Source of the DNA: an uncultured Clostridia bacterium
Lineage (GTDB): Bacteria; Acidobacteriota; Aminicenantia; JdFR-78
DNA: 33,461 nt
Reading direction: 5' to 3'
Assembly: GCA_964632095.1 (NCBI GenBank)
Contig: CAZWBN010000001.1
Location: forward strand, 1-33,461
Shown: positions 14,374 through 33,461 of the stretch, piece by piece
Position numbering within the stretch: the first letter of the stretch is position 1
How the letters are laid out: each line of letters opens with the position of its first letter
Made by a program: the position numbers and the translations under genes
Notes under the pieces: generated by a model
Seen by the model: the letters and a program-made list of their open reading frames with translations, nothing else
Told to the model about the DNA's origin: nothing
Database searches by the model: none

Positions 14374-14823
14374 TCAATCCTCAATTTTTCCTGTGAGCCA
14401 GCCAATTTTGATATTTTCTTTCCTATCACCTGGAAGATAGGGTTTAATGTCTATAACAGGAGTTCCTTCAATCATGTCAATTCCTTTCACTCTTAAAATA
14501 TTTCCTTCCCTCTCCAGTAATTCAACGATTGTCATTCCAATTGGATTTGGTCTATAAGGAGACCTTGTAGCAAACACACCGCGAATTTCATCACCAAAAG
14601 GAGGTTTTACTTCAAGATTATATCCATATGATTTATGAAATACAAAAATTATAATTAAATGAGAAAATCCATCTATATCCTTTAAACCATCCTCAAATTC
14701 TTTAAAAATTTCAATTCTTCCTTCTATAAGCTCACGATCTTCTTTTGGAATATCCTCTTTGTCTTTATATGGAGAATGAATTATTCCTATTGGTCTCAAT
14801 TTAAAATTTTTCATTGGTCTCAA
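14374..14823 (-). CDS. trmO: TrmO/TsaA-family (YaeB-like) SAM-dependent tRNA methyltransferase
   Basis: RPIGIIHSPYK..., FSHLIIIFVFHKS, RGVFATRSPYRPNPIGMTIVELL, GIDMIEGTPVIDIKPY. This is the characteristic UPF0066/TsaA pattern. Confidence 0.85.
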   Translation of the reverse strand: MRPMKNFKLRPIGIIHSPYKDKEDIPKEDRELIEGRIEIFKEFEDGLKDIDGFSHLIIIFVFHKSYGYNLEVKPPFGDEIRGVFATRSPYRPNPIGMTIVELLEREGNILRVKGIDMIEGTPVIDIKPYLPGDRKENIKIGWLTGKIED

Positions 14824-15229
14824 ATTTTTTGAATTTCAATTTTTCTCTCAAATTTTCTAAATCCGAGAGCTTTCCATTAAAATAAAAAAGATGGGATAAA
14901 CATTTACAATCCGAAGAACCAAATCCTTTTACTGGAGAAAAAGAGTATTCTGAGTCATTTTTTATTTTTTCAGCAATCTCACATTCAACCTTCCGTCCTT
15001 CTTTTATCCATATTTCTTTAATCTCCGCTTCTGTGAGGAAATAATCAATATGCCAGAACAGTTTTTTATTCTTCCTCAGGTATCTCGTTATCCTTGCTCC
15101 AAAACCCCTTTGAGCAGAACCTACATAAAGATAGTTTCCTGGCTGAAAATGCATAATATTTAGCTTTCCGATTTTAATTTTTCTTGGTTCTTTTAAATTC
15201 ATTAATAAAATATAAGTACCTTTTCCCAT
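14801..15229 (-). CDS. DUF123 protein (GIY-YIG/Uri superfamily nuclease-like)
   Basis: GTYILLMNL...YLYVGSAQRGFGARITRYLR...KLFWHIDYF matches the DUF123 pattern. I place the start at the internal ATG 15227-15229 (MGKGTYILL). This removes the 83-nt overlap that the longest ORF (to 15316) would have with the upstream methyltransferase. Confidence 0.7.
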   Translation of the reverse strand: MGKGTYILLMNLKEPRKIKIGKLNIMHFQPGNYLYVGSAQRGFGARITRYLRKNKKLFWHIDYFLTEAEIKEIWIKEGRKVECEIAEKIKNDSEYSFSPVKGFGSSDCKCLSHLFYFNGKLSDLENLREKLKFKKFETNEKF

Positions 15230-15233
15230 TAAC

Positions 15234-15869
15234 TCAATTAAGTTTTTCGAAGCCGAGGACAATGAATCCTCCTTCATCAAATCCTTTCTCTGGTTCTTCA
15301 ATTTTTTTAAACTCATTGGGTCCCTGAAAAAGGGTTTGATAAGCCTTACAAAATTTTAATCCTGCTTCAGAAGCTAATTGAATAATTTCTCTCGCTGAAT
15401 AAAAATTTGCCACTTTGTAAAATTTACTCTTTCTCTTTTTAGATTCATAAAAAATTCCCCATTTACTATTTTTTTCTATAATGCCAACTATCAATACCCC
15501 CTTTTTCTTTAATACTCTTTTTGCTTCTCTAAGCACTTCCAAGGGATTTTCTACAAAACAAAGAGTAACAATTATCGCAATAGTATCGAAAGATTCACTA
15601 TTAAAGGGTAAAAATTCTCCTACACCTTGAACAACTTTTATTCCTCTTCTTCTGGCAACCTTTAACATGTTGATAGAAGGGTCTAAGCCAATTTCTATTC
15701 TCAGTTGCTGGGCAAATCTTCCAGTTCCCACTCCAATTTCCAATCCAAATCCTTCTGAAACAATTTTTTTAAGAGCCTTAATTTCTGATAAATAAATTTC
15801 TCTATTTTTTTTAAACCATTCATCATATCGTTCCCAGTTTTCCTCGAATACTTCAATCTTTTCTTTCAT
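15234..15869 (-). CDS. Class I SAM-dependent methyltransferase (Methyltransf_11-like, small-molecule type)
   Basis: Motif I LEIGVGTGRFAQQL followed by a typical Rossmann-fold pattern (FDTIAIIVTLCFVENP...LKKKGVLIVG). No DNA-methyltransferase motifs (DPPY/NPPY or PCQ). Confidence 0.8.
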   Translation of the reverse strand: MKEKIEVFEENWERYDEWFKKNREIYLSEIKALKKIVSEGFGLEIGVGTGRFAQQLRIEIGLDPSINMLKVARRRGIKVVQGVGEFLPFNSESFDTIAIIVTLCFVENPLEVLREAKRVLKKKGVLIVGIIEKNSKWGIFYESKKRKSKFYKVANFYSAREIIQLASEAGLKFCKAYQTLFQGPNEFKKIEEPEKGFDEGGFIVLGFEKLN

Positions 15870-16396
15870 TCATCTTCAATTTTAAATTCCCACGCACACC
15901 AGTAATCAGACGGATGAGGGTCCGGAGGACAGGCAATACAGGCTGTCTTTATTCTCGGGTCTATGGTTTTAGCAAAATAGGTGTATTCCACTATACCGAC
16001 TGGCTTACAGGGAAAATCAGGAAGATTTTTTCTCCTGCGGGCTTCCTGAACCCGACAAGTTATCATCCTGAACACACACCGATTTTCTGATACTTCCATT
16101 ATTTCCTGTTTATTAATATGAGCATAAAGCCGAAATTTTAAAGCCTGAATCAATGCCGGAATTCCACCTCCTGGCTCTATATTCAATCTTTTCATTATTC
16201 TTTTAGCCTCAACAACGGTAAATTTTTCCCATGCCCTGCGGTCCAGCTCAATAGCTTTTTCCATTCCAAATTCCTTCTCGACTTCCTGGAACCAGAGTCC
16301 GTCATGAGCAAGCCAGTTTTTGGCAGCATCAGATAATAATTCTAAAAGTTCCTCCTTTGATAAATCCTTAACCTCTTTCATTGGTTTTCTCCTCAA
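15866..16396 (-). CDS. Conserved Cys-rich cytosolic protein (DUF6125-like / ATC-hydrolase-like fold)
   Basis: NWLAHDGLWFQ, CRVQEARRRKNLPDFPCKPVG, CIACPPDPHP...CAWEF. The family name is recalled from memory only. The start may instead be the second Met (16381). Confidence 0.45.
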   Translation of the reverse strand: MRRKPMKEVKDLSKEELLELLSDAAKNWLAHDGLWFQEVEKEFGMEKAIELDRRAWEKFTVVEAKRIMKRLNIEPGGGIPALIQALKFRLYAHINKQEIMEVSENRCVFRMITCRVQEARRRKNLPDFPCKPVGIVEYTYFAKTIDPRIKTACIACPPDPHPSDYWCAWEFKIEDE

Positions 16397-17582
16397 TATT
16401 TCCAGGTTTTCTTATTTTTAATTCTTCCAAAACTTCATAAAGATTATTTTTATCCATGATTATTATTTCCACAGAGGAATCAGCAAGAGCGTATTCAGGT
16501 CCTTTTCCTTTAAACTTTTTCTTTAAAATTAAAAAATCTACATCTCTTTTAATTAAATCCTCTGCAATGGCTATTCCTTTCCCCTTTTCCTGATGCACAA
16601 ATGGATTCTCAAAGGTCTCTATTTTTTTAATATTATTTGTATCTACATTAACATTAATTAAAGCGAAATAAGGTGCTTCTCCAAAATGTTCTGACAGTTC
16701 TCCTTCAGGTGATTTTAAAGGCACTGCATATTTAAAAATTTTCTTCTGAATAGGCTCATAATGGATCCGTATGCTGTCTATATGTGGAATCTCCTTCTTA
16801 ATTTTTTGTTCCAGCAATTCTACAATATGATGCGCCTTTTCAACTTCTCTAACATTGAGAGTTAAATCTGCCTCTATAAATCGATAACGCCCTGAGTTTC
16901 TACCGAGCAGGGTTTTAATCTGTCCCACCCTCCTTTCCTCAATAATGATTTTTCTTATTTTATTTAAAGTTTCGTAATCCAATGATGCATCCAGCAAAAC
17001 CTTAAGGGAATCGATTAATATTTCATATCCTGATTTCACAATAAAAATTATTACTATTCCAGCTGCAAATTTTTCTATCCGAATTCCAAACAAATACCCG
17101 CTTAATCCTATGAAAACAATTAATGAGGAGAGAGCATCTGACTTTGAATGATGCCCATCAGCTATTAAACTCGGAGAATTTGTTTTTTTACCCGCTTTTA
17201 TTTTATAGATTGAAAGAAAATAAGATACCAAAAAAGCTATCATAGAAACCAAAAGAGCAAGATTAAGATGTTTTACTTTAGGAAGAGAGGCAAAAATTAC
17301 CTCTTTTCCAATTTCATATCCTGCTAAAAAAATAAAAAAAGAAATAATAAGAGAAATCAAATTCTCCACCTTGTGAAGTCCATAAGGAAATGTTTTGGAT
17401 TTTCTCTTTGAGATTTTCAATCCAGCGAAAACAGCCAATGAGGAGATAAAATCCGTTAAGCTATGAATAGCATCTGCTTTAATAGCAATACTTCCCGAAA
17501 GAACAGCAATAAAGGATTTGAAAACTAAAAGGAATAAAGTTATTGAACTTGAAATTAATGAAACCTTTTCGGTTTGTTCCAT
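16368..17582 (-). CDS. Cation diffusion facilitator (CDF) transporter with a C-terminal NifX/NifB-type (dinitrogenase FeMo-cofactor-binding family) domain
   Basis: Six TM helices with metal-site motifs HSLTD (TM2) and HSKSD (TM5). A cytoplasmic CDF dimerisation domain follows (RFIEADLTLNV...IRIHYEP). The last ~110 aa read KYAVPLKS...SEHFGEAPYFALINV...GKGIAIAEDLIKRDVDFLILKK..GKGPEYALADSSVEIII, the NifX/NifB-C pattern. Confidence 0.8.
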   Translation of the reverse strand: MEQTEKVSLISSSITLFLLVFKSFIAVLSGSIAIKADAIHSLTDFISSLAVFAGLKISKRKSKTFPYGLHKVENLISLIISFFIFLAGYEIGKEVIFASLPKVKHLNLALLVSMIAFLVSYFLSIYKIKAGKKTNSPSLIADGHHSKSDALSSLIVFIGLSGYLFGIRIEKFAAGIVIIFIVKSGYEILIDSLKVLLDASLDYETLNKIRKIIIEERRVGQIKTLLGRNSGRYRFIEADLTLNVREVEKAHHIVELLEQKIKKEIPHIDSIRIHYEPIQKKIFKYAVPLKSPEGELSEHFGEAPYFALINVNVDTNNIKKIETFENPFVHQEKGKGIAIAEDLIKRDVDFLILKKKFKGKGPEYALADSSVEIIIMDKNNLYEVLEELKIRKPGNIEEKTNERG

Positions 17583-17583
17583 T

Positions 17584-18507
17584 TTAATTTATTTCATAAT
17601 ACTTTATTCCATGATAAAGAACAACTTTTATTCTTCCATCCTGGATTAAGGAATCGAGATATTTCAAAATTTCATTTTGATGTTTTCCCAAAGAAAGAGA
17701 AAGGTCAAGAAGACTAACCGGTCTTCTTCTTATTATTGATAAAATAGCCTCTTCCAAATCTTCTAAATAGGCTTCCTGTTCCTTTGGTTTAAATTCAGCT
17801 ATTATTTCGCAATTTTTTCCAAAAAGTTTTTCAATTTTATTCAACTCTTCAATGGAAAGGGGTAATGCGAATTTTTCAGAAGGAGGACGAACAACTGTAT
17901 TTAAATGAACTTTATCCGGATTTATTTCTTGAACTACTGAAACAACTCTATCCAGATGTTTTTTTTCGTCGTTTATCCCTTTAACAAGCATTATCTCAAG
18001 CCATATCAACCCTTCAAATTCCTCTCTGAATTTTTTAATTCCTTCAATTATCTCTTCAATTTTTAATGAGGGATGAGGGCGATTTACTTTTCTGAATATT
18101 TTCATTGTAACTGCATCAAGAGAGGGAACAACAAGATCAGCAAAAAGCAGTTCTTTTCTTAATTCTTCCTGATAAAACAAAGAACCATTCGTCAGAACAG
18201 CAACAGGAATTTTTGTGATTTTCTTTATTTCTCTAATAAGAGCGCCAATCTTTGAATTTAAAGTTGGTTCTCCAGAACCAGAAAAAGTTATATAATCTAT
18301 TCTCTGATGTAAAGAAAGAGCTTTTTCGAGCTGCAAAAATATATCTTTTTCCGGAAAATATTCTTTCCTCTCAATCGTCTTATTTGTTGTTCTCCCAAGC
18401 TGACAGTAAATACAATCATATGAACATGTTTTAAAGGGCACAAGGTCTACCCCGAGGGAAAAACCAAGCCTTCTTGAAGGCACAGGTCCATAAATATATT
18501 CAGTCAT
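17584..18507 (-). CDS. Radical SAM enzyme of unknown function with a C-terminal winged-helix-like domain
   Basis: GPVPSRRLGFSLGVDLVPFKTCSYDCIYCQLG (CxxxCxxC cluster motif), then FSGSGEPTL. C-terminal ILSIIRRRPVSLLDLSLSLGKHQNEILKYLDSLIQDGRI. No SPASM or B12 domain. Confidence 0.8.
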   Translation of the reverse strand: MTEYIYGPVPSRRLGFSLGVDLVPFKTCSYDCIYCQLGRTTNKTIERKEYFPEKDIFLQLEKALSLHQRIDYITFSGSGEPTLNSKIGALIREIKKITKIPVAVLTNGSLFYQEELRKELLFADLVVPSLDAVTMKIFRKVNRPHPSLKIEEIIEGIKKFREEFEGLIWLEIMLVKGINDEKKHLDRVVSVVQEINPDKVHLNTVVRPPSEKFALPLSIEELNKIEKLFGKNCEIIAEFKPKEQEAYLEDLEEAILSIIRRRPVSLLDLSLSLGKHQNEILKYLDSLIQDGRIKVVLYHGIKYYEIN

Positions 18508-18617: not shown

Positions 18618-19472
18618 TCATATCGAATAATTTTTTGCTTTTAAAAGTATTATATCTCCTTCTTTTACCCCTATATCATGAGCAATAATTGAACATTTTG
18701 CTTTTAAAAGGAAGAAAATGGGGTAAGGCTCATCCGAAAGTCCTTCATAATTTCCCTGTCCTTTACTGATAATTAAATCAGAGCTTCGGTATACTTCTAA
18801 AAATTCTTCCGAGCAAAACCTTAAAATTGTGCCCGGAGCATCACATCCTGAAGAAATAACCTCAGCTACTTCATGAATTCCTGAAAGATGAGCATCTTCC
18901 ATAGTAGCATCATTTATAACTGGTTTTTCTCTTACCACATAAATCACTGATCTTCCGAGTTCTTCAATTAAAAGCCGGTCAAAAACTGTTTCTCCAGCGT
19001 TATCTGCTAAGTATAAAATCTTTTTTGCCTTTTTCAATATCTCGCAAAATTCTCGATAATGACAAATTTTTAATTCCTGAGTAAGGATTTTGTTAATATC
19101 CTCTCTTAATTCAAAATCAGGGTTGGCTCCAAAATCAATAACATTCCCTGCAATTGAAAGTCTTATAGCAGTTAGCAATTTATCTTTTGAAGAATTAATT
19201 ATTTCTTTCATTTCAGAATATAAAGAGAGAGCCTGCTCTATACATTTCTTCTTGATTTCTCTGTAAGGGTCTATCACCCCTGTCTCTTCTCCTATGACTC
19301 GATAAACCTCCCGTCCTATTTCCGGTGGAGTGGCATATTTTGGAATTTTTGGAAATAATAAACTTACTTTATTTAATATATGTCTGATTCTTTCTTCGTC
19401 AGAAGTAATGAGTCTTGATGTCTTAAGAGTCTGGCTAAGAAAACATGGAAAACAATCAAGATATGCTCTCAT
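18618..19472 (-). CDS. DUF89 family protein (ARMT1-like metal-dependent damage-control phosphatase)
   Basis: N-terminal MRAYLDCFPCFLSQTL, plus ADNAGETVFDRLLIEEL and ISKGQGNYEGL, typical DUF89 signatures. Confidence 0.8.
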   Translation of the reverse strand: MRAYLDCFPCFLSQTLKTSRLITSDEERIRHILNKVSLLFPKIPKYATPPEIGREVYRVIGEETGVIDPYREIKKKCIEQALSLYSEMKEIINSSKDKLLTAIRLSIAGNVIDFGANPDFELREDINKILTQELKICHYREFCEILKKAKKILYLADNAGETVFDRLLIEELGRSVIYVVREKPVINDATMEDAHLSGIHEVAEVISSGCDAPGTILRFCSEEFLEVYRSSDLIISKGQGNYEGLSDEPYPIFFLLKAKCSIIAHDIGVKEGDIILLKAKNYSI

Positions 19473-19978
19473 TTTTTACTCCTTTTTGATGCCTCTTTTA
19501 TAATTTTCCTATGACTTGAAAAGGGAATGCGAGGAAGTTTCTGAATCGGGAAAAATCTGGCGTCTAAACTATCCGAACCTGGAGAAACTTTCCCGGTTAC
19601 CTGAATTTCATATCCAATAATAAGAACATTTCTATAAAGTTTTGACCTCTGAGAATAAACCCCAATCAATTCAATTCTCTTCCCTCTTAATCCTGTCTCC
19701 TCTTCAAGTTCTCTAAGACAGGCTTTTTCCGGAGTTTCTTCAATTTCAATGAACCCGGAAGGCAAAGCCCACTTTCCTTTTCCAGGGTCTACGCCTCTTT
19801 TCACCAGAAGAATTTCTCCCTTTTCATTTCTGACAAGTGCAGCTACACTTGGTAAAGGATTCTCATATTTTACCCATCCACATTTAGGACAAATTAATCT
19901 CTTTCTTCTTTCCATTTTAGACATTTTCAATCGTTCCGAACATATAGGGCAATAAATAAAATTTTTTCTTTTTCTCAT
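19469..19978 (-). CDS. NUDIX hydrolase with N-terminal zinc ribbon
   Basis: CPICS...CPKCG zinc ribbon, then the Nudix box GFIEIEETPEKACLRELEEETGL. Confidence 0.85.
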   Translation of the reverse strand: MRKRKNFIYCPICSERLKMSKMERRKRLICPKCGWVKYENPLPSVAALVRNEKGEILLVKRGVDPGKGKWALPSGFIEIEETPEKACLRELEEETGLRGKRIELIGVYSQRSKLYRNVLIIGYEIQVTGKVSPGSDSLDARFFPIQKLPRIPFSSHRKIIKEASKRSKK

Positions 19979-23625: not shown

Positions 23626-23667
23626 TGTTTTCTCCTTCCTCTCAAATATTAGTATATAAAATTATTA

Positions 23668-25353: not shown

Positions 25354-25391
25354 TTTTCCTTCCCTCCTTTTAAGTTATTATGGGATTGCGC

Positions 25392-26663: not shown

Positions 26664-26684
26664 TTTTCCTCTCTCCTTTTCTAA

Positions 26685-27110: not shown

Positions 27111-27181
27111 CGTCTTTTATCTCCTTCACATGCATATTTGTTTTATAGGATTATTGTTTGAAGGTAAGGATACCGCAGCAT

Positions 27182-27406: not shown

Positions 27407-27453
27407 TTTTAACCTCCTTAAATTATGATATTGTTTAAAATAATTATTATTCC

Positions 27454-27807: not shown

Positions 27808-27821
27808 TATGAAACCTCCTT

Positions 27822-27867
27822 ATAAAATTAAAATTTTATTATGTTTATGATATGTTTTAAATAGCAA
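27822..27867 (-). promoter_or_regulatory. Candidate internal promoter plus AT palindrome upstream of the dsrE-like gene
   Basis: Minus strand reads TTGCTA (27867-27862), 18-nt spacer, CATAAT (27843-27838). The -10 overlaps an 8-2-8 inverted repeat ATAAAATT-aa-AATTTTAT (27822-27839), just upstream of the AGGAGG RBS. All-AT composition makes a chance match plausible. Confidence 0.3.
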
Positions 27868-27898
27868 CTCACATAATTTTAATTTTTTCATTTTCTTT

Positions 27899-28171
27899 TT
27901 ATTTAATGGATTGAAGTATCTTCTTTATTTTCTTCGGCTCTGTTAAAAAGTAACAACGTAAGTTTCCTTTTGGACGAGAATCAACAATTCCACAAAACTT
28001 CAATATATTTAGATGCTGAGAAATATTAGGTTGACTCACATTAAGAAGTTCTTGAATATCATTTACACATTTCTCTCCTTCTAATAGTGTTTCTACTATG
28101 AGGAGACGAGTCGGATGAGCTAACGCCTTAAAAATTTGAGCACTCTTCTTATAACTTATTTCAGTTTTCAT
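27899..28171 (-). CDS. ArsR/SmtB-family winged-helix transcriptional regulator
   Basis: ALAHPTRLLIVETLLEGEKCVNDIQELLNVSQPNISQHLNILK is the canonical ArsR HTH. Three Cys (EKCVND, KFCGIV, LRCYFL). 90 aa. Confidence 0.85.
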   Translation of the reverse strand: MKTEISYKKSAQIFKALAHPTRLLIVETLLEGEKCVNDIQELLNVSQPNISQHLNILKFCGIVDSRPKGNLRCYFLTEPKKIKKILQSIK

Positions 28172-28183
28172 CTGTAAAATAAG

Positions 28184-28213
28184 TATATAAACATATTCGA
28201 ATATTGATATATT
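28184..28213. promoter_or_regulatory. Candidate ArsR-type operator: perfect 12-bp palindrome ATATTCGAATAT (28193-28204) inside a longer imperfect inverted repeat TATATA-N3-ATATTCGAATAT-N3-TATAT
   Basis: Read directly. Lies 13-42 nt upstream of the arsR ATG and downstream of a possible -35 TTGACA (minus strand, 28243-28238). Resembles the AT-rich TTC/GAA-cored inverted repeats bound by ArsR/SmtB repressors. Confidence 0.35.
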
Positions 28214-28285
28214 CTTTTATCACAAATAAACTAGCTATGTCAATAAATTTTTAAATATTATATCAAACTTTTTTATTTTTTAAGT

Positions 28286-28498
28286 TTACCACCAACGTCC
28301 TCTTTCTTGGTAAGTTTTCATAAATCTTTCAATTGAACGGTCATAGGTTCTCTCAACATCATCAGGAAAAAAACAAGCGGGAAGCTCTCCCATACTCCAG
28401 TGATACTGGAGACATTCACAGCAAATGCCTTTTCGTGAACAGGGCTCATAAGAGCAATTACATTTCTCAAGATTTTTGTTCACACTACATTCTTTCAT
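28286..28498 (-). CDS. Small cysteine-rich protein (DUF6485-like), unknown function
   Basis: 70 aa with 8 Cys: [31 protein letters not shown]...LPACFF. Strong RBS (AAGGAGG). The family name is recalled from memory only. Confidence 0.5.
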
Positions 28499-28537
28499 CT
28501 TACCTCCTTACATAATTTCTTTTTGAGATTAAAGAGG

Positions 28538-28999
28538 TTAAATATTTCGATAAAATTTACGCCAGGGTTCACGCTTTTTATAAAGATAATCGGAGAGGGC
28601 TTTCCGAAGAGTACTTGTTGCTAATAATGCACAATGCTGGTCAGCCTCAGGCAAACCACCTAATGCCTTTAAAAGCTTTTCCTGAGTAATTGTTAAGGCT
28701 CCAAGAATATTCTTTCCTTTTGCTAACTCTGTAACCATACTTCCGCATGAAATTGTTGTTCCGCATCCATCAGTCAGGAAGCCACAATCTACAATTTTAT
28801 CATTTTCAATTTTTAAAAATATCTCCATTGTATCTCCACATGGACCTTTCACTTTTCCATATCCATCTGGGTTTTCAATTTTCTTAAGATTTCTGGGATT
28901 CTGCCAGTGTTCAATTACAGTCTCTGAGTATTTCTTCTTTATTTCTTCCATAATTTTCTTTTGAAGTTCGCTGGCAATTTCCTCAAGGGTTTTGCTCAT
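28538..28999 (-). CDS. NifU N-terminal / IscU-like Fe-S cluster scaffold protein
   Basis: GPCGDTMEIFLKI, FLTDGCGTTISCGS and ADQHCALLATSTLRKAL give the three conserved scaffold cysteines in IscU-like spacing. Confidence 0.8.
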   Translation of the reverse strand: MSKTLEEIASELQKKIMEEIKKKYSETVIEHWQNPRNLKKIENPDGYGKVKGPCGDTMEIFLKIENDKIVDCGFLTDGCGTTISCGSMVTELAKGKNILGALTITQEKLLKALGGLPEADQHCALLATSTLRKALSDYLYKKREPWRKFYRNI

Positions 29000-29619
29000 C
29001 TCTCTCCCTCCTCTTCGATAAGAGCATTAATTACATTTCTAATTTTCTGCATGGAAAGTGAATATTCTTTTCTGAGTTTTCCCAATCTTCTGGTTAAAGG
29101 AATATCCTCAGGAAGCCCCAATCTATCAATGATTTTTTTTGCAGGAATGCCGGTTTTCTCCTGAATATCATAGAGAGTCATCTGCCCAGAAATTTTTATA
29201 ATTTTTATATAATTCTTGATATTTCTCTGTCTATACCCCTGTTCATATTTTTCCCCATATCCTCTATAAGCCTCTGGATTTTTAGGATAAAAGTACCACA
29301 ATGAAAAAATTAAAAGAGCAGGTAAAATCAATATAAAAACAACAACCCATATTTTTCCAAAAAGTTTTTCTGTTTTCCCTTTTATCCAGCTCCAGTGAAG
29401 TATAATATGAATGATAAAAAAAGTTATAAAGGCTAATGAAAGGTAGAGATGAATGTTTCCCCATTGATGTCTGTGAAGCTGCCATAAGTATTTATCTGCC
29501 TCATTGACAGCTGGTCCTTTTGGAATAAAAAACCCCATGAGAATGCCAATGAAAGCAATAGCTGTCAACAGTACAAAAAGAATTATATCTACAACATAAT
29601 ACAGTGTTGTTTTTTTCAT
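28996..29619 (-). CDS. Membrane protein with DUF4405-like His-rich helices and a small cytoplasmic C-terminal helical domain
   Basis: Three TM segments. LHRHQWGNIHLYLSLAFITFFIIHIILHWSW is a His pattern reminiscent of DUF4405 / b-type cytochrome-like domains. C-terminus MTLYDIQEKTGIPAKKIIDRLGLP. Confidence 0.55.
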   Translation of the reverse strand: MKKTTLYYVVDIILFVLLTAIAFIGILMGFFIPKGPAVNEADKYLWQLHRHQWGNIHLYLSLAFITFFIIHIILHWSWIKGKTEKLFGKIWVVVFILILPALLIFSLWYFYPKNPEAYRGYGEKYEQGYRQRNIKNYIKIIKISGQMTLYDIQEKTGIPAKKIIDRLGLPEDIPLTRRLGKLRKEYSLSMQKIRNVINALIEEEGER

Positions 29620-29641
29620 TTTCTATAATTACTTTTCACTA

Positions 29642-30514
29642 TCAAACCAATAATTCTAACATATTTTTCCAGATTAGTTGAATTATTTTCGTAATATTAT
29701 TTGTAGTATATTCAACAACTGGAATTCCCTGGACCATTGATTCTATTATTTCTTCACTATAAGGAATTTTTCCTATCACTGGAATATTCTCCCTATTGCA
29801 CCAGTCCTCAATTTTGCTTGTGTTATCAATATTCAAATCATATTTATTAATGCAACATACAGCTTTTACTTTAAAGTGTCTTGCAACATTAACTACTCTT
29901 TCCATGTCATGAATTCCTGAAAGGGTTGGTTCAGTAACTACCAAAGCTAACTCAACTCCTGATAGAGAAGCAATAACAGGGCAGCCAATTCCTGGTGGTC
30001 CATCAATTATTATTAAATTTAAATTATTCTTCTCAGCAATTGAACTCGCATTCTTTCTTACTTCAGTAACCAGCTTACCTGAATTCTCCTCTGCGATTCC
30101 AAGTTTTGCATGAACAAAAGGTCCATATTTTGTCTCTGAAATATACCACTCTCCAGAAATATTATCTCGCATTTCAATAGCTTTCTCTGGACAGATATAA
30201 CTGCAAACAGCACAACCTTCACAGGAAATAGGGTCAACAATTATCAAATTATTTTCTTCTTTTATGGCGTTGAATCTGCATACTTCCCTGCATTCCCCGC
30301 ATTGAATACACTTTTCCTGAATAATATATGCCTTTTTCCCACCATAAAATTCATGTTTTTCTTTTATATCGGGATGAAGAAGAAGATGTAGATTTGAAGC
30401 ATCCACATCGCAATCTACCATAACTTTATTAGATGCCAAGGATGCAAAAGAAGCAGTTAGAACAGTTTTACCTGTTCCTCCTTTACCGCTTATAATAACT
30501 ATTTGTTTAATCAT
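29642..30514 (-). CDS. MinD/ParA-superfamily P-loop ATPase with inserted 2x[4Fe-4S] ferredoxin domain (COG1149-type), copy 2
   Basis: Deviant Walker A SGKGGTGKT. Insert CIQCGECREVC...CEGCAVCSYICPEKAI, then DGPPGIGCPVIASL. Confidence 0.85.
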   Translation of the reverse strand: MIKQIVIISGKGGTGKTVLTASFASLASNKVMVDCDVDASNLHLLLHPDIKEKHEFYGGKKAYIIQEKCIQCGECREVCRFNAIKEENNLIIVDPISCEGCAVCSYICPEKAIEMRDNISGEWYISETKYGPFVHAKLGIAEENSGKLVTEVRKNASSIAEKNNLNLIIIDGPPGIGCPVIASLSGVELALVVTEPTLSGIHDMERVVNVARHFKVKAVCCINKYDLNIDNTSKIEDWCNRENIPVIGKIPYSEEIIESMVQGIPVVEYTTNNITKIIQLIWKNMLELLV

Positions 30515-31358
30515 TTTTCTGTATCAGTATTTTAATGTTTTTATATAATTCAATAAATTTTTCCTTCCATTCAGGCTTCTCAGATACGAAGGGAACTCCT
30601 TTGGAATAAGCAATGGCTATTTCTTTATCCATAGGTATTGACATAAGAACAGGAATCTTTTCTTCTATGCAATATTCTTCAACTTTTTTATCTCCTATAT
30701 CAGCTCTATTAATAATTACTCCAAAGGGAATTCTTAATTTTCTTACTACACCTACTGCAAGTTTTAAATCATTAAGACCAAAAGGAGTAGGCTCGGTTAC
30801 CAGAATACAAAAATCGCTCTCTTTTATTGATTCAATCATTGGGCAGGAGGTACCCGGGGGAGCATCTGCAATTATTATGCGAGTAGGATTAATACATCTT
30901 TTTACTTCTCTGATTAAAGGAGTGGGCATGGGCTCTCCGATATTCAATTTACCATGAACAAATTGAATACTATTCACCATGCCAAATTCTCTTATTCCTA
31001 TAATCCTGTTTTTTTCTGTAATCGCTTTTTCAGGACAGAGTAAGGCACATCCACCACATCCATGACAAAGTTCCGGGAAAATCAGAACATTCTGTTTTGT
31101 TACTGCAATTGCATTATAAGCACAAACTTCGGCACACTTTCCACAGTAAGTACATTTCCTTTCATCCACTTCAGGCACAGGAATACCAATATCTGTATGA
31201 AAGGATATATTCGGTTTCAAGAAAAAATGAGCATTAGGTTCTTCCACATCACAATCAAGAAATTGGACAGGATAGGATTCACACAAGGATAGAGCAAAAT
31301 TTACAGCAATTGTGGTCTTCCCTGTTCCTCCTTTTCCACTTGCAATAGAGATAATCAT
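30507..31358 (-). CDS. MinD/ParA-superfamily P-loop ATPase with inserted 2x[4Fe-4S] ferredoxin domain (COG1149-type), copy 1
   Basis: SGKGGTGKT. Insert CTYCGKCAEVC...CHGCGGCALLCPEKAI, then DAPPGTSCPMIESI. 8-nt overlap with copy 2. Confidence 0.85.
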   Translation of the reverse strand: MIISIASGKGGTGKTTIAVNFALSLCESYPVQFLDCDVEEPNAHFFLKPNISFHTDIGIPVPEVDERKCTYCGKCAEVCAYNAIAVTKQNVLIFPELCHGCGGCALLCPEKAITEKNRIIGIREFGMVNSIQFVHGKLNIGEPMPTPLIREVKRCINPTRIIIADAPPGTSCPMIESIKESDFCILVTEPTPFGLNDLKLAVGVVRKLRIPFGVIINRADIGDKKVEEYCIEEKIPVLMSIPMDKEIAIAYSKGVPFVSEKPEWKEKFIELYKNIKILIQKND

Positions 31359-32149
31359 TTTATCTCTATAACCTTCCCCGCACCAGCTTTTATGAAATTT
31401 TCACCGTATTCTTTCTCGAAAAGGATTATCGTTTCTTTGCCAGAACAATGACATGGGGCTGCCTTTTGAACCCCGAGGTCTTTAAAGTCATATATAACCT
31501 TTTCTATTTCTCGTTTTGAGAAACCCGCCATATGAAAACCTCCCAAGACCAGATATACATTTCCCTTAACCACTTCTTTGGCTTTTGATACGATTAATGT
31601 AATTCCTGGATGAGCACAACCTGTTATAACAATCAATCCTTTTCCTGTCTTTAAAATAAGAGATTGTTCTTTTATCCAGGTCCCGAGAACTCCCGTGGTA
31701 TAAACATTTTCAATAATTTGCTGTGGACCTTTAACTTCCCGAAGAATTGCTCCTTTCTCTTTAATTTTATCTTTAAATTTTGTGGAGAAAGTCTCAGGAA
31801 CCCATACTTCTACTTTATTATTTATATTTAAAAATCCTTCGAGTCCTCCTGTGTGATCACCGTGAGCATGTGAAAGGAAGATTATGTCAATTTCAGCTGG
31901 GTCAATTTCTAATTTCTTCATATTGGAAAGAAGAGTTTCACTACTCCCACCGGTATCAAATAATATTGCTTTTTCAAAACCGCGTATCAAACAGGAAAAA
32001 CCCCATTCCGTCTTCAATTCTTCATTGAAAGGATTATTGTCATAAACAATAATAATCTCTGGATTTTTATTTTTCTTCATTCTTATTACTCCTAAAAAAG
32101 AAATTAAAATTATAAAATTTATTAGAAAAAACTTGAGATTATCTCTCAT
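31355..32149 (-). CDS. Metallo-beta-lactamase-fold protein (COG1237-type)
   Basis: LSHAHGDHTGGL (HxHxDH), ITGCAHPG, GGFHM. The longest ORF adds a hydrophobic 23-aa leader and overlaps the ferredoxin stop by 4 nt. The internal Met at 32080 (MKKNKNPEIIIVYDN) is an alternative start. Confidence 0.75.
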   Translation of the reverse strand: MRDNLKFFLINFIILISFLGVIRMKKNKNPEIIIVYDNNPFNEELKTEWGFSCLIRGFEKAILFDTGGSSETLLSNMKKLEIDPAEIDIIFLSHAHGDHTGGLEGFLNINNKVEVWVPETFSTKFKDKIKEKGAILREVKGPQQIIENVYTTGVLGTWIKEQSLILKTGKGLIVITGCAHPGITLIVSKAKEVVKGNVYLVLGGFHMAGFSKREIEKVIYDFKDLGVQKAAPCHCSGKETIILFEKEYGENFIKAGAGKVIEIK

Positions 32150-32412
32150 TTTCTTGACGCCAACTCATTAATTTTTTTATTTAACCTGTTTATTTTATGT
32201 TTTAAATTTTGAATTCTTTCTTTTAAATCATCTATTTCTGAATAAGATACAAATTCAACTGCTCCTAAGGGACAAACAGATAAACATGTTCCACATTTAA
32301 TACATCTTGAAACATCTATGAAAGCTTTTTTATTGATAAGAGAAATGGCACCAGTAGGACAATACTGAACACATAGCCCGCATCCCCTACAATTTCTGTT
32401 TACTCTGTACAT
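32146..32412 (-). CDS. 2x[4Fe-4S] ferredoxin with C-terminal coiled-coil tail
   Basis: CRGCGLCVQYCPTGAI and CIKCGTCLSVCPLGAV, followed by DDLKERIQNLKHKINRLNKKINELASRK. Confidence 0.8.
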   Translation of the reverse strand: MYRVNRNCRGCGLCVQYCPTGAISLINKKAFIDVSRCIKCGTCLSVCPLGAVEFVSYSEIDDLKERIQNLKHKINRLNKKINELASRK

Positions 32413-32415
32413 TCA

Positions 32416-32655
32416 TCAATCCCTTTTACAAATTCCATCTGATGAGCAAGGTGGAGTATCACATCTCTCTGTTCTTCCACAGCAGGTTGTCCCACTTTGA
32501 GTGGATTCACCCATCATTACTGCACCAGGAATGGATAGTAATTTCTCTAATTCACTTGAACCACAACTTGGACAATTTGGTTTTTCTTCAATAGTCTTTT
32601 GAAAGATTTCTATTATTTTCCCACAATTTTTACATTTGTACTCATAAATGGGCAT
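32416..32655 (-). CDS. FmdB-family (CxxC_CxxC_SSSS) zinc-ribbon protein with Cys-rich tail
   Basis: MPIYEYKCKNCGKIIEIFQK...CPSCGS is the FmdB signature. Tail GTTCCGRTERCDTPPCSSDGIC. Confidence 0.75.
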   Translation of the reverse strand: MPIYEYKCKNCGKIIEIFQKTIEEKPNCPSCGSSELEKLLSIPGAVMMGESTQSGTTCCGRTERCDTPPCSSDGICKRD

Positions 32656-32701
32656 CTCCCTTCCCTCCTAAAAACTAAAAAGTAAAAATTAATTTACATT
32701 T

Positions 32702-32920
32702 TTATTCCCTTATCATTCTCGTTCCACACTTTGGACAGGAAACCTGATTACAGGGAACTCCTCTCTGATGAGGAACTCTTGTACCACAGGAGGGACATAC
32801 ACAATAGCCTCCTAACCCTAAACCTCCTCCTCTTCCTCTTCCATATCCTTGTCCTCTTCCTTGTCCCCAGCCACCTCCAGAGCCTTTACCTGCTGGTCCC
32901 ATACCATTTCCTCTTGGCAT
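32702..32920 (-). CDS. DUF5320-like Gly/Arg-rich protein with C-terminal zinc ribbon
   Basis: MPRGNGMGPAGKGSGGGWGQGRGQGYGRGRGGG is a DUF5320-type N-terminus. It is followed by CVCPSCG...PHQRGVPC...CPKCG. Confidence 0.65.
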   Translation of the reverse strand: MPRGNGMGPAGKGSGGGWGQGRGQGYGRGRGGGLGLGGYCVCPSCGTRVPHQRGVPCNQVSCPKCGTRMIRE

Positions 32921-32956
32921 TCTGAACCTCCTTATAAGTTTAATATTTTGTTATCA

Positions 32957-33403
32957 TTAGTTATAGGTTTCCATTATTTTTTTATCTTCTTGTATTAAAT
33001 CTCTAGCAATCTCTTCCATTTTCATTTTTTTCCAGAAAGAAAGTTTCTGATGAGTTTCAAAATACTTTAATGGTATTGGATGAGTCCCAATAACTACAGG
33101 CAATTTGTATCGAGTTTCTATATATTCTTTAAAATGTCTTATACGAGGACAAGGAGGATAACCAACAACTAATCCTGTAGCAAGATGAATTACTTCTGCC
33201 CCGTTTTTTTTCATTTCTTCTGGAACATATTCAACATTTCCTCCTGGGCAACCTCCACAATAAGAATATCCCACTATTTCTACTTCTTCATCCTTGGAAT
33301 AAATTGAAAATCCACCGACTCTTTCTTTCAAAGCTCGAAAACATTTACCTCCACTGCAATTTTGGTATCTTGCGCAAATAATTATTCCTATTTTTTTCAT
33401 CAA
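32957..33403 (-). CDS. CGGC-domain protein
   Basis: IGIIICARYQNCSGGKCF...YSYCGGCPGG. The eponymous CGGC motif sits in the expected N-terminal half. 148 aa. Confidence 0.7.
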   Translation of the reverse strand: MMKKIGIIICARYQNCSGGKCFRALKERVGGFSIYSKDEEVEIVGYSYCGGCPGGNVEYVPEEMKKNGAEVIHLATGLVVGYPPCPRIRHFKEYIETRYKLPVVIGTHPIPLKYFETHQKLSFWKKMKMEEIARDLIQEDKKIMETYN

Positions 33404-33461
33404 TTCCTCCTTTTATTTAATGTATCGTGTTTTCCGGATAACTTTCTCTCAAGCCAGCTTC

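Follow-up and report, generated by a model that had tools for sequence, protein, structure and literature searches.

The window, that is, the whole 33,461-nt stretch of DNA analysed here, is an entire contig, and its edge truncates the 5' part of a Cys-rich gene cluster, which runs off the window. As listed in Table 1, a sequence-only reading that had described an eleven-gene cluster was right about a real Cys-rich cluster on the minus strand, which contains ten complete genes and the 3' end of one more at the contig edge. An HMM check confirmed all of its domain calls except DUF5320, which was only borderline at family level. Inspection of the junctions showed the overlaps of 4, 4, 8 and 4 nt that had been called successive, but a 22-nt gap between ATP2 and DUF4405 breaks the run. 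Shine-Dalgarno sequences were absent at the overlapping starts and AGGAGG was present before the spaced genes; the gene spacing suggests that the cluster is cotranscribed. The last gene, DUF6485, is followed by a 114-nt AT-rich gap without a Shine-Dalgarno sequence.

Table 1. Genes of the Cys-rich cluster and related genes in the window
Feature	Position	Strand	Basis
74-aa Gly/Arg/Trp-rich protein, 3' end (19 codons and stop)	33400..33461	-	translation SWLERKLSGKHDTLNKRRN
CGGC-domain protein	32957..33403	-	PF08821, E 1e-27
GRzn, 72-aa Gly/Arg-rich six-Cys protein	32702..32920	-	DUF5320-type N-terminus, six-Cys ribbon
FmdB-family zinc ribbon	32416..32655	-	PF09723, E 5e-16; TIGR02605, 60.8 bits
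2x[4Fe-4S] ferredoxin	32146..32412	-	Fer4 families
MBL-fold protein (HAHGDH)	31355..32149	-	PF00753
ATP1, CbiA/MinD ATPase	30507..31358	-	GKGGTGKT, two CxxCxxCxxxC, PPG(TS/IG)CP
ATP2, CbiA/MinD ATPase	29642..30514	-	GKGGTGKT, two CxxCxxCxxxC, PPG(TS/IG)CP
DUF4405 membrane protein	28996..29619	-	PF14358, E 2e-13
IscU/NifU-type scaffold (NifU_N)	28538..28999	-	PF01592, E 1e-31; TIGR03419, 131.7 bits, below cut-off
DUF6485, 70-aa 8-Cys protein	28286..28498	-	PF20095, 43 bits
Nudix hydrolase and DUF89/ARMT1-type phosphatase	18618..19978	-	L001 synteny
Radical SAM protein (CxxxCxxC)	17584..18507	-	family adjoins ATPase pair in 25/80 loci
CDF transporter with C-terminal NifX (Nitro_FeMo-Co) domain	16368..17582	-	conserved in L001 (88% aa)
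DUF6125, SAM methyltransferase, DUF123, TrmO-like protein	14374..16396	-	last three families recur beside the pair in other phyla

The metagenome contig L085 was 99.96% identical to window positions 30824-33461 (2638 nt), and the stop codon of the 74-aa protein overlapped the ATG of the CGGC gene, which together proved that the operon extends upstream of the contig end. The 74-aa protein is complete in L085 (9777-10001), cationic, and has a C-terminal transmembrane helix. Read from L085, the full unit starts with a predicted sigma70-type promoter and a Fur box, followed by fur, a second Fur box, three DUF5320-type Gly/Arg/aromatic-rich proteins, an IssA-like protein (NifX domain, cationic tail and coiled coil), a tandem-NifX protein, an Mrp ATPase and the 74-aa membrane protein, and then runs from CGGC through GRzn, FmdB, ferredoxin, MBL, the ATPase pair, DUF4405 and IscU to DUF6485. 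The CDF fusion had been noted as the only NifX-type domain in the window; two more NifX-domain genes lie just past the contig end. The three DUF5320-type proteins, the Mrp ATPase and fur are found just past it as well.

The two Fur boxes (16/19 and 17/19 matches; 0.01 expected by chance) flank fur, and 1.155 Mb of related loci contained only four Fur-box matches, each 27-38 nt upstream of the cluster's first gene. Fur genes were also located near the ATPase pair on the same strand in 20/80 loci. The operon appears to be iron-regulated via Fur. The Fur-family regulator scored 131 against the NCBIfam Fur cut-off of 220 and matched PerR-like models too; what it senses might therefore be redox state or a metal other than iron.

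ATP1 and ATP2 are paralogs, as had been read from the sequence; they share 36% identity, and each carries all three motifs listed in Table 1. ATP1 is a SIMIBI ATPase of the MinD/Mrp class; its Walker A motif is deviant, and switch I is followed by an inserted 2x[4Fe-4S] domain. Conservation analysis showed that the Walker A motif, the eight ferredoxin cysteines and the switch-II cysteine are invariant in both paralogs; the latter is Cys172 of ATP1, within D-x-P-P-G-x-x-C-P, and Cys178 of ATP2, which also has an invariant SGKLV segment specific to its subfamily. The AlphaFold2 model of ATP1 (pLDDT 84, with a low-confidence ferredoxin insert at pLDDT 56-65) gave archaeal MinD, FlhG, ApbC, ATPase-type HypB and Cfd1 as best fold matches. 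The ATP1 family search returned 904 50%-identity clusters at E<=1e-30, and the ordered pair, with ATP2 always downstream, was present in 80/80 retrieved genomes, which span more than 15 bacterial and archaeal phyla. Among the best 150 representatives at 50% identity, 33 were natural fusions with two Walker A motifs, and because all of them join ATP1 (N-terminal) to ATP2 (C-terminal), the sequences indicate that the two probably act as a heterodimer.

The neighbourhood of the pair was surveyed in these 80 loci, with neighbours clustered, not exhaustively annotated. Same-strand neighbours included NifX-like (70 loci), DUF5320 (35), NifU (30), MBL (29) and radical SAM (25) genes; methyltransferase (23), ARMT1 phosphatase (11), TrmO-like (9), DUF364 (7) and DUF123 (4) genes also adjoined the pair. 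Since the pair is ordered in every locus and accessory genes recur across phyla, the arrangement is not chance. Within 5 kb of the pair, 132 ORFs encoded Gly-rich, cationic, acid-poor segments, versus 9 in the remaining 495 kb. The nearest relative, L001, has 93% nucleotide identity across the pair and lacks window 20009-29634 except the DUF6485 gene, which immediately follows ATP2 and is itself directly followed by the Nudix and DUF89/ARMT1 genes; the rest of the cluster stays contiguous.

The pair matches Orp3 and Orp4 of the Desulfovibrio vulgaris orange protein (ORP) complex. Bona fide MrpORP genes lie beside ATP1 orthologs in two loci, L064 and L077 (529 and 501 bits, cut-off 450), and the encoded proteins show the CxHFGHCE and CDH motifs known from publications, together with a proline motif of the TPPPHxPG type. 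In the window's own genome MrpORP is split into separate genes for the Mrp ATPase (387.6 bits, model positions 2-256) and one NifX protein (133.9 bits, positions 265-365). The cluster is part of a widespread, anaerobe-specific ORP operon, and window 28286-33461 is very probably the downstream two-thirds of an approximately 19-gene unit of this type from a Candidatus Aminicenantes bacterium.

We infer the roles of the CGGC, FmdB, MBL, DUF4405 and DUF6485 proteins. The CGGC protein (147 aa from the ATG at 33400; gene present in 6/80 loci) has invariant Cys10/16/21/49/52/85 and His73/108, and its AlphaFold2 model (pLDDT 83.6) predicted a flavodoxin-like alpha/beta fold with no significant match among PDB folds. 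In GRzn, an N-terminus with 32% Gly, 14% Arg+Lys and 1% acidic residues precedes a CxCPxCG...PC....CPxCG ribbon. The window's GRzn matched neither PF17253 (DUF5320) nor any other Pfam family above cut-off, and an ortholog fell just below the PF17253 cut-off of 27 bits, scoring 26.1 over the N-terminal segment alone (positions 1-39). We found 46 orthologous ORFs in 44/80 loci, and in about 22 cases no more than 10 nt separate the end of the ORF from the start of ATP1. GRzn is a candidate counterpart of Orp5/Dde_3197, the small Cys-rich protein encoded in ORP operons. The FmdB protein, encoded in 19-28 of the 80 loci, has five additional cysteines in its C-terminal tail. The C-terminal coiled-coil tail of the ferredoxin aligns gap-free with the coiled-coil tails of the DUF5320-type proteins encoded upstream, a resemblance only, and other loci encode related fusions that join a DUF5320 coiled coil to a ferredoxin (clusters c27 and c31). 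The MBL protein has a hydrophobic N-terminal anchor and starts 4 nt before the ferredoxin stop ends; its best PDB sequence matches, 7dck (1e-54), TM1679 and 2p4z, are all uncharacterised proteins, and its gene directly abuts ATP1 in L002, L004, L009, L023 and L034 and ends 2 nt short of ATP1 in L003.

DUF4405, a His-rich protein with three hydrophobic helices and a soluble C-terminal domain of about 70 aa, was present only in the window, L081 and L002 and absent from L001; it is a lineage-specific accessory gene. The IscU/NifU scaffold bears the Cys-Asp, Cys and His-Cys ligand motifs (best PDB match 7c8m, 2e-35), and a search for the IscS/NifS PLP motif near the pair in every locus and in the window found none. 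DUF6485 had no relative in the PDB. By score the radical SAM protein is neither NifB nor MoaA, with weak best named matches to a tungsten-cofactor maturase (56 bits, cut-off 380) and MoaA (50 bits, cut-off 325). The best named relatives of the CDF-NifX fusion were MamB, MamM and FieF.

The ORP complex has been purified in Desulfovibrio, where Orp3 (DVU2103) and Orp4 (DVU2104) are paired ferredoxin-containing MinD-type ATPases whose expression is controlled by a sigma54 activator that senses redox state (PMC6345978, PMC8359166). They co-purify with the NifX-like Orp8 and accept Fe-S clusters from MrpORP in vitro (PMC6345978). Such proteins had been described as having no experimentally assigned role; they have in fact been studied experimentally, and it is their physiological function that stays unassigned, the sole published proposal being "putatively cell division" (PMC6345978, PMC8359166). 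IssA, which combines a NifX domain with a Gly-rich tail of cationic and aromatic character, binds thioferrate and is able to reconstitute [4Fe-4S] ferredoxin (PMC5524996), and IssA homologs are up-regulated in Methanococcus voltae grown on FeS2 and sensing Fe(II) limitation (PMC8516115). The earlier suggestion of nucleotide-dependent assembly or delivery of a metal-sulfur centre agrees with this literature as well as with the protein families present, their synteny and the Fur boxes, and the cluster most likely handles inorganic iron-sulfur material.

The pair might instead be an ATP-driven low-potential reductase for cofactor biosynthesis or enzyme activation, a heterodimer like NifH, BchL or CfbC that would pump ferredoxin electrons into a partner enzyme (e.g. 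radical SAM, MBL or methyltransferase products) building or repairing an organic or metallo-cofactor carried by NifX domains. NifH belongs to the same ATPase class, redox domains are inserted beside switch I, and the invariant switch-II cysteine presumably lies as far beyond the switch-II Asp as Cys132 does in NifH; radical SAM, methyltransferase, ARMT1, TrmO-like and DUF364 genes adjoin the pair in the surveyed loci, and such genes directly follow it in the nearest relative. However, none of the loci has a catalytic partner of NifDK, BchNB or CfbD type, MinD, Mrp and HypB match structurally better than NifH, the second NifH cluster ligand (the Cys97 equivalent) is missing from the ATPases, and the Fur boxes, IscU and Mrp indicate iron and Fe-S, not an organic cofactor. 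We consider this explanation unlikely.

Handling of thiomolybdate or thiotungstate together with copper is quite unlikely. It models the NifX-like proteins on the Desulfovibrio gigas orange protein, itself a binder of [S2MoS2CuS2MoS2]3-, and has the ATPases assemble or dismantle such clusters for Mo/W supply or Cu/Mo detoxification in sulfidic habitats. According to the work cited in PMC6345978, native Orp8/orange protein homologs were isolated with a non-covalent Mo-Cu sulfide cluster, not iron; thiometallate anions would also suit the cationic tails, and the radical SAM's best named matches point to tungsten and molybdenum-type maturases, although at scores far under the cut-offs. Molybdate/tungstate transporter, Moa and Moe families each occurred in fewer than 3 loci (neighbourhood clustering, not exhaustive annotation), the regulator boxes are of Fur type, and the IscU, Mrp and MamB/FieF-like CDF genes suggest iron.

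It is very unlikely that the pair forms a MinD-like system, held on the membrane by amphipathic helices, that positions the septum or chromosome in anaerobes without MinCDE, as proposed for Desulfovibrio ORP. In its favour are that published proposal and the polar localisation of MrpORP (PMC6345978, PMC4672049), MinD as the closest solved fold, a deviant Walker A motif and C-terminal amphipathic helices in both proteins (muH 0.55 for ATP1, 0.70 for ATP2), and mreBCD-pbp2-rodA in the same window. But no MinC, MinE or DivIVA-type partner was found in the window or conserved neighbourhood, the genes conserved next to the pair encode metal-sulfur proteins, a Fur regulator, transporters and an Fe-S scaffold, ATP1 orthologs with 55-62% identity to that of the window occur across archaea with different division machineries, and the mre genes lie more than 14 kb off, beyond a tRNA gene, and do not recur in other loci. 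Dedicated maturation of the Hdr-like/MvhD/FrhB-like Fe-S flavoprotein complex and DsrE-TusA sulfur relay is highly improbable: the linkage that had been noted is real in the window (directly adjacent, same strand), and the distant genome L002 has the pair followed by DUF4405-ArsR-HdrA-like-MvhD-FrhB-like genes, but the module is next to the pair in only 1/80 loci, opens with its own ArsR-type regulator after the 114-nt gap, and is a separable insertion absent from the nearest relative.

The reading we favour, at about even odds, is a Fur-controlled, membrane-associated system driven by ATP and electrons, in which iron-sulfide species would move between carriers of the NifX/IssA type and IscU/Mrp. 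The mechanism as a whole (carriers, heterodimer switch, Fe-S transfer and Fur control) is tentative, a shade below even, and in it we infer the substrate, the direction of transfer and the role of the cysteine. The proposed cargo is an anionic, inorganic iron-sulfide, either thioferrate-like or derived from FeS(aq), which NifX-domain proteins and cationic Gly-/aromatic-rich tails would keep on the cytoplasmic side of the membrane. ATP1 and ATP2 would form a heterodimeric SIMIBI switch, in which ferredoxin electrons entering through the two inserted 2x[4Fe-4S] domains combine with ATP binding and hydrolysis. The site of action may be built from the invariant switch-II cysteines, although a single conserved cysteine per subunit at this putative interface counts against the mechanism. 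There Fe-S fragments would be loaded or reductively released and passed to the Mrp carrier and IscU scaffold, allowing cluster assembly without a cysteine desulfurase.

Fur would couple expression of the operon to iron status. Classical Fe-Fur repression leads to induction at low iron, whereas IssA of P. furiosus is reportedly induced by abundant iron and sulfide. If classical repression holds, this operon would differ from P. furiosus IssA in being induced by low iron, and because of these opposite responses the system may serve either storage or scavenging of iron-sulfide.

Gene assignments in the window were made by HMM searches against Pfam and NCBIfam, and the features are listed in the table. 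The domains proposed by the sequence-only reading were confirmed by HMM with the exception of DUF5320, and all motifs it had named were found, namely GKGGTGKT, two CxxCxxCxxxC motifs in each ATPase, and PPGTSCP or PPGIGCP. It had counted eleven genes, and the complete genes are ten. The sizes of the four overlapping junctions it described (4, 4, 8 and 4 nt) were correct, but the junctions are not successive, as a 22-nt gap lies between ATP2 and DUF4405. The starts at the overlapping junctions had no Shine-Dalgarno sequence and the spaced genes carried AGGAGG, which fits translational coupling, as at the 8-nt overlap between ATP1 and ATP2. A scan of 26500-33461 for promoters and terminators gave nothing above shuffled expectation, every terminator-like match being intragenic, and a PHROGs search for phage families returned zero matches, so no phage link was indicated. 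As an observation the cluster is real and non-random, but it had been miscounted and is cut by the contig end.

Features of the window, and gene order in L085, a near-identical metagenome contig that continues the cluster upstream
Feature	Position	Strand	Evidence or content
End of a further gene	33400-33459		final 19 codons; stop codon overlaps the CGGC ATG
CGGC protein	32957-33403	minus	PF08821, E 1e-27
72-aa Gly/Arg-rich protein	32702-32920	minus	six Cys, no Pfam DUF5320 match
FmdB zinc ribbon	32416-32655	minus	HMM
2x[4Fe-4S] ferredoxin	32146-32412	minus	HMM
MBL-fold protein, HAHGDH	31355-32149	minus	HMM
ATP1, CbiA/MinD-type ATPase with inserted Fer4 domains	30507-31358	minus	HMM
ATP2, CbiA/MinD-type ATPase with inserted Fer4 domains	29642-30514	minus	HMM
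DUF4405	28996-29619	minus	HMM
NifU_N/IscU	28538-28999	minus	HMM, PF01592, 110 bits
8-Cys protein, Pfam DUF6485	28286-28498	minus	HMM
Hdr-like block	19980-28171	minus	ArsR-type regulator, DsrE-like, TusA, MvhD, two HdrA-like flavoproteins, Fer4_8, FrhB-like, second MvhD, ZIP transporter
Further downstream genes	14374-19978	minus	Nudix, DUF89/ARMT1 phosphatase, radical SAM, DUF6125, SAM methyltransferase, DUF123, TrmO-like
Radical SAM protein	17584-18507
CDF transporter with C-terminal NifX (Nitro_FeMo-Co) domain	16368-17582	minus	best named relatives MamB, MamM (magnetosome iron transporters) and FieF
tRNA-Leu(CAA)	14219-14306	minus	directly downstream of the TrmO-like gene
mreB-mreC-mreD-pbp2-rodA	8930-14110		after tRNA-Leu(CAA)
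L085 gene 1			Fur-family gene
L085 gene 2			100-aa Trp/Gly/Phe-rich protein
L085 gene 3			DUF5320 protein
L085 gene 4			122-aa aromatic-rich protein with coiled coil
L085 gene 5			202-aa protein: NifX domain, Gly/Arg/Met/Trp tail, Pro-rich stretch, DUF5320 coiled coil
L085 gene 6			237-aa tandem-NifX protein
L085 gene 7			273-aa Mrp/ApbC ATPase: GKGGVGKS, DSPPGTGDE, CPHC
L085 gene 8			74-aa Gly/Arg/Trp-rich protein with transmembrane helix; CGGC next

The 72-aa protein had been labelled DUF5320-like. It has no PF17253 match of its own even at E ≤ 10, but the label is fair at the family level, because the ortholog in the related locus L041 reached 26.1 bits over model positions 1-39, close to the gathering threshold of 27 bits. 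The family is well conserved, with 46 ORFs in 44 loci, and in about half of these ORFs the end lies no more than 10 nt from where ATP1 starts. The consensus, which includes six Cys, reads MPRGDGTGP...GRG...CVCPxCG...PHQxGxPC....CPKCG, and the element common to it and DUF5320 is the Gly/Arg-rich N-terminus MPRGxGxGP. The first 23 codons of the MBL gene encode a hydrophobic stretch, FFLINFIILISFLGVI, followed by RMKKNK, which suggests an N-terminal membrane anchor; the tblastn alignments of the MBL protein in loci L004 and L009 extend almost to this hydrophobic N-terminus. A literature search found no paper on the function of its PDB relatives 7dck, TM1679 and 2p4z. The CGGC protein gave a confident model, for which the fold search found no significant match (best matches generic flavodoxin-like, E 1.7e-3, TM <0.5) and the PDB sequence search was empty; DUF6485 had no relative in the PDB either. 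Nothing relevant was found in the literature on COG1149, DUF5320, the CGGC domain, DUF6485, MJ0578/9 or the inserted ferredoxin domain.

The window is a complete contig of 33,461 bp, and the cluster runs past its end. Related contigs were found via the database protein P0001, identical to ATP1, and the CGGC protein. Among them L085, a JGI metagenome contig, matched window positions 30824-33461 with 99.96% identity over 2638 nt and continued upstream with the eight genes listed in the table. Together with the partial gene at the contig edge, this showed that the operon has about 19 genes, of which the cluster of the window makes up the downstream two-thirds. Small proteins extremely rich in aromatic residues and Gly are encoded at 6678-7615 and 9777-10001 of L085, for example MPRGFGRGWGAFGWFGYPFWGWGWGRG (29% Trp+Phe+Tyr), and two of them matched no Pfam or NCBIfam model.

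We next compared the operon with the orange protein (ORP) complex, which a study by Fievet from 2011 reportedly dealt with in Desulfovibrio vulgaris Hildenborough. In D. vulgaris, Orp3 (DVU2103) and Orp4 (DVU2104) are MinD-like proteins with two [4Fe-4S] ferredoxin motifs each and a C-terminal amphipathic helix, which co-purify with the NifX-like Orp8 and take Fe-S clusters from MrpORP (Orp9) in vitro (PMC6345978). The ORP genes are arranged as two sigma54 operons that diverge from each other and are controlled by OrpR, a redox-sensing activator (PMC6345978, PMC8359166), and their function is only "putatively" cell division (PMC6345978, PMC8359166, PMC4672049). ATP1 and ATP2 resemble Orp3 and Orp4 in that they are neighbouring ATPases of the MinD type, paralogous to each other and about 31 kDa in size, each with two [4Fe-4S] motifs and an amphipathic C-terminus. 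As in D. vulgaris, NifX-like (Di-Nase) proteins and an Mrp/NBP35 carrier closest to the MrpORP model are co-encoded, a small Cys-rich protein adjoins the pair (Orp5 in D. vulgaris), and the system occurs in anaerobes only. The two Nitro_FeMo-Co genes lie 1-2.5 kb past the contig end, in L085 of the same genome population, with none in the window's part of the cluster.

The carrier was examined with the MrpORP model NF041136 of NCBIfam (cut-off 450 bits). A fused MrpORP adjoins the ATP1/ATP2 orthologs in loci L064 (529 bits) and L077 (501 bits), both above the cut-off and both with CxHFGHCE, CDH and a proline motif of the published TPPPHxPGxxP type. In L085 the Mrp protein scored 387.6 bits over positions 2-256 (259 bits with the ApbC model) and the adjoining tandem-NifX protein 133.9 bits over positions 265-365, each below 450 alone. 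Judged from these matches, MrpORP appears to be split into two genes in the genome of the window. All these results support well the identification of the cluster as an ORP-type operon, with orthology to DVU2103/2104 proposed from the published description and synteny. The sequence-only reading had missed that the core of the cluster corresponds to an experimentally studied complex, Orp3/Orp4, whose function is still unexplained. The operon is nevertheless a variant. It is one long operon instead of two divergent ones, has a Fur-family repressor and Fur boxes in place of sigma54 and OrpR, carries the apparently split MrpORP and multiple DUF5320-type tail proteins, and includes extra, partly Cys-rich accessory genes (CGGC, FmdB, coiled-coil ferredoxin, MBL, DUF4405, IscU and DUF6485). 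No ORF for DUF134 (Orp7) was found in L085; NtrC-type activators and DUF134 are present in other related loci.

To describe the occurrence of the pair, one scan of species-representative genomes was used, which gave 80 loci with an ATP1 relative of 55-94% identity; the window proteins were mapped onto these loci, and all neighbouring ORFs were clustered into families. The nearest relative of ATP1 was from Candidatus Aminicenantes bacterium JdFR-78 (94% aa). The loci came, among others, from the bacterial groups Aminicenantes, Omnitrophota, Chloroflexota/Dehalococcoidia, Bacillota, Desulfobacterota, Planctomycetota, Ignavibacteria and Zixibacteria and the archaeal groups Bathyarchaeia, Methanocellaceae, Thermoplasmatota and Altiarchaeota, and the pair spans more than 15 phyla. 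Synteny was observed in related genomes: ATP2 directly follows ATP1 in 80/80 loci, and partner families recur. NifX-like proteins (PF02579) were found near the pair in 70 of the 80 loci, followed by DUF5320 (35), DUF134 (about 31), NifU (30), MBL (29), the radical SAM family of the window (25), SAM methyltransferase (23), Fur (20), FmdB (19), ARMT1/DUF89 (11), TrmO-like (9), DUF364 (7) and CGGC (6), and DUF4405 and DUF6485 were lineage-specific. DUF1847, DUF169 and DUF364/DUF4213 ("putative heavy-metal chelation") adjoin the pair in 3-7 loci each (clusters c29, c32 and 12), and none of them is in the window.

ATP1 and ATP2 share 36% identity. In 77 ATP1 and 72 ATP2 sequences, the deviant Walker A motif (GKGGTGKT), the eight ferredoxin Cys and the Cys of D-x-P-P-G-x-x-C-P were invariant in both paralogs; the DCD Cys occurred in every ATP1 and in 81% of the ATP2 sequences, and the SGKLV segment was invariant in ATP2 alone. 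A full-library search placed the ATP1 family in 904 clusters at 50% identity (E ≤ 1e-30). Among the best 150 of the 904 representatives, 33 were single-chain ATP1-ATP2 fusions of about 480-710 aa (within proteins P0241-P0328), with the ATP1-like half first and the ATP2-like half second in 33/33 and two Walker A motifs in all but one. The fusion linkers measured about 30-70 residues, and two further long proteins carried an unrelated N-terminal extension before the ATP1-like domain. That ATP1 and ATP2 form an obligate heterodimer is indicated, indirectly, by their natural fusions, by a gene order that never varies, by the overlap of 8 nt between them, and by the co-purification published for Orp3 and Orp4.

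The AlphaFold2 model of ATP1 had a mean pLDDT of 84.4, with only 56-65 in the ferredoxin insert. The closest solved folds were archaeal MinD, FlhG, ApbC, ATPase-type HypB and Cfd1, with NifH lower, and the search with this predicted model confirmed the MinD/Mrp class only; PDB sequence and fold searches found the ferredoxin insert in no solved structure. Like Mrp/NBP35/ApbC, Cfd1-Nbp35, ATPase-type HypB and CooC, which were among the best structural matches, the pair has the SIMIBI fold, the principle of a nucleotide-dependent dimer and a D-x-P-P-G switch-II context. What sets ATP1 and ATP2 apart from the Mrp/NBP35-type carriers, HypB and CooC is an insertion behind switch I, a 2x[4Fe-4S] domain. 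The CxxC bridging motif of the Mrp/NBP35-type carriers is not found in ATP1 or ATP2, which have a single Cys right after switch II, and the only conserved Cys outside the insert were the switch-II C172/C178 and the DCD Cys. ArsA likewise has two homologous SIMIBI halves as a pseudo-dimer, often fused, as in the 33 ATP1-ATP2 fusions, but its arsenite-site cysteines are absent from ATP1 and ATP2. NifH couples ATP hydrolysis to electron transfer and has a Cys seven residues past the switch-II Asp, which we take to be the same spacing as that of the ATP1/ATP2 Cys. ATP1 and ATP2 differ from it in having no equivalent of the second cluster ligand and in carrying their redox centres in the inserted ferredoxin domain and not at the dimer interface.

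The regulation of the operon was then analysed in L085. Upstream of fur (6150-6204) a sigma70-type TTGACA-17-TATATT promoter is followed by GAAAATGAAAATCATTTTC, a 16/19 match to the Fur-box consensus with a perfect 10-3-10 palindrome. Another Fur box, with 17/19 matches, sits after fur and before the gene that follows it (6680-6698). The chance expectation was 0.01 matches per locus, and 0/200 shuffles reached three strand-wise matches at two sites. No Fur box was found in the window itself. In 1.155 Mb of the 80 loci, only four matches with ≤3 mismatches occurred (0-1 in shuffles). Each of them precedes the gene that heads the cluster, at a distance of 27-38 nt; this gene is fur in three loci (L002, L004, L009) and DUF5320 in L006. 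The L085 regulator scored best on Fur models yet below their cut-off, and PerR models matched too. The annotated GTG start of this fur gene is probably wrong, an ATG at 6219 with an AGGAG ribosome-binding site fitting better.

A second line of evidence came from the tail proteins. IssA of Pyrococcus furiosus has a NifX domain and a cationic, aromatic, Gly-rich tail that binds anionic thioferrate, and it can rebuild the [4Fe-4S] cluster of ferredoxin (PMC5524996); IssA homologs are up in FeS2-grown Methanococcus voltae sensing Fe(II) limitation (PMC8516115). The 202-aa protein of L085, which lies outside the window, similarly combines an IPR003731/NifX domain (Nitro_FeMo-Co, 94 bits), a Pro-rich stretch and a cationic Gly/Trp/Arg-rich tail (19% Gly, 13% Arg+Lys, 16% Pro), together with a DUF5320 match of 52 bits. 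Tail-type segments were found in six operon proteins, this one and five further ones, among them the 72-aa protein, the only tail protein of the window itself. Gly-rich, cationic, acid-poor segments of 30 residues were present in 132 ORFs within 5 kb of the pair compared with 9 in the remaining 495 kb, an enrichment of about 11-fold, and these 132 ORFs were spread over 64 of the 80 loci, 127 of them on the strand of the pair. The C-terminal coiled coil of the window ferredoxin aligns gap-free to DUF5320 coiled coils, a resemblance and not a statistical result, and fusions of ferredoxin with a DUF5320 coiled coil were found in other loci. Differently from IssA, the tails here are joined to a membrane helix, to a ribbon with six Cys or to coiled coils, and the NifX proteins are co-encoded with ATPases, Mrp and IscU. 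In addition, IssA is induced by high iron and sulfide (PMC5524996), whereas the operon here has Fur boxes. Several products of the operon are predicted to be tethered to the membrane, namely the 74-aa protein, DUF4405, the MBL protein by its N-terminus and the ATPases by their helices.

The IscU of the window has CGD, GCG and HC motifs in the alignment to 7c8m, giving three Cys ligands plus Asp and His. A search for a cysteine desulfurase (IscS/NifS), by motif only and of limited sensitivity, found no ORF with the PLP-lysine motif in the window or in the roughly 8-10 kb around the pair in the 80 loci.

We favour a Fur-controlled, membrane-associated iron-sulfide handling system as the function of the operon. 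The NifX/IssA-like domains and cationic tails would hold inorganic iron-sulfide species, the ATP1-ATP2 heterodimer would spend ATP and ferredoxin electrons to load or reductively release Fe-S fragments, and the released fragments would go on to Mrp and IscU. What we infer in this scheme is which substrate is handled, which way the transfer runs and what the switch-II cysteines do. The metal-sulfur interpretation of the sequence-only reading was right in spirit, although it had overlooked the known ORP complex. Two rivals also concern metals or cofactors, one being an ATP-driven reductase that serves a cofactor pathway and the other thiomolybdate or copper handling.

The third rival is cell division, as published for ORP, a proposal that rests on family resemblance. 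The deviant Walker A, the MinD fold as best match and the amphipathic C-terminal helices (muH 0.55 in ATP1 and 0.70 in ATP2, last 25 residues) speak for it. However, the MinD models TIGR01968/01969 gave only 38-71 bits with the ATPases, far under their cut-offs of about 200-213, and no MinC/MinE partner or division context was present among the annotated ORFs of the window or the neighbour families recurring in at least 3 loci. Four observations point to iron and sulfur, not cell division: the Fur boxes that several lineages have at the start of the operon, the enrichment of IssA-like tails, about 11-fold, near the pair, IscU without a nearby desulfurase, and the fusions that indicate the heterodimer.

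The link of the cluster to the Hdr-like module, suggested by the sequence-only reading, is not conserved. Between DUF6485 and the ArsR-type gene lies a 114-nt AT-rich gap without Shine-Dalgarno sequence, and the block beyond it, which includes a regulator of its own, resembles a self-contained module of Hdr-like and sulfur-relay type. In JdFR-78 the sequence passes from the end of ATP2 (window 29635) straight to window 20008 with the DUF6485 gene alone kept between, and continues with Nudix, ARMT1, radical SAM, CDF-NifX, DUF6125 and TrmO-like genes. This jump indicates that the Hdr-like block, DUF4405 and NifU are an insertion or deletion in a larger conserved neighbourhood. Among the 80 loci, adjacency of the pair to a partly similar Hdr-like module was repeated only in L002, and because of this synteny a dedicated maturase of the Hdr-like complex is the weakest rival. 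Several families of the genes from Nudix to TrmO-like are found again next to the pair in other phyla, so these genes belong functionally with the cluster. The SAM methyltransferase gene is absent at this position in JdFR-78. NifB and MoaA were ruled out on score as identities of the radical SAM protein. CDF-NifX is kept in JdFR-78 (88% aa), and among the loci examined the fusion occurs only in these two genomes. The tRNA-Leu(CAA) marks the end of the conserved neighbourhood.

Few protein systems that are specific to anaerobes and have no assigned function are as widespread as the ORP complex, and cell division has been the sole proposal so far; the comparative evidence provides concrete, testable alternatives to it. 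The locus also shows the neighbouring Hdr-like module to be an independent insertion. In a bolder form, which we consider unlikely, ORP-type operons would encode a previously unrecognised iron-regulated, membrane-associated machine that uses inorganic iron sulfide directly. Disordered Gly/Arg/aromatic-rich proteins with a common coiled coil would, with NifX, nucleate and hold a thioferrate-like FeS phase, and the heterodimer of Orp3/Orp4 type would represent a novel class of reductase, dependent on ATP and fed by ferredoxin, that dissolves or builds this phase and feeds IscU and Mrp without cysteine desulfurase. Such a machine, if true, would account for the presence of the system in all anaerobes of sulfidic habitats and for its confinement to them. 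Should the iron-sulfide reading itself be wrong, the locus would still be a well-delimited variant for testing ORP function. If it is true, the metallochaperone repertoire would gain an ATPase with built-in ferredoxin domains, and the operon would show by what means iron and sulfur are acquired or stored by anaerobes when little free Fe(II) is available.
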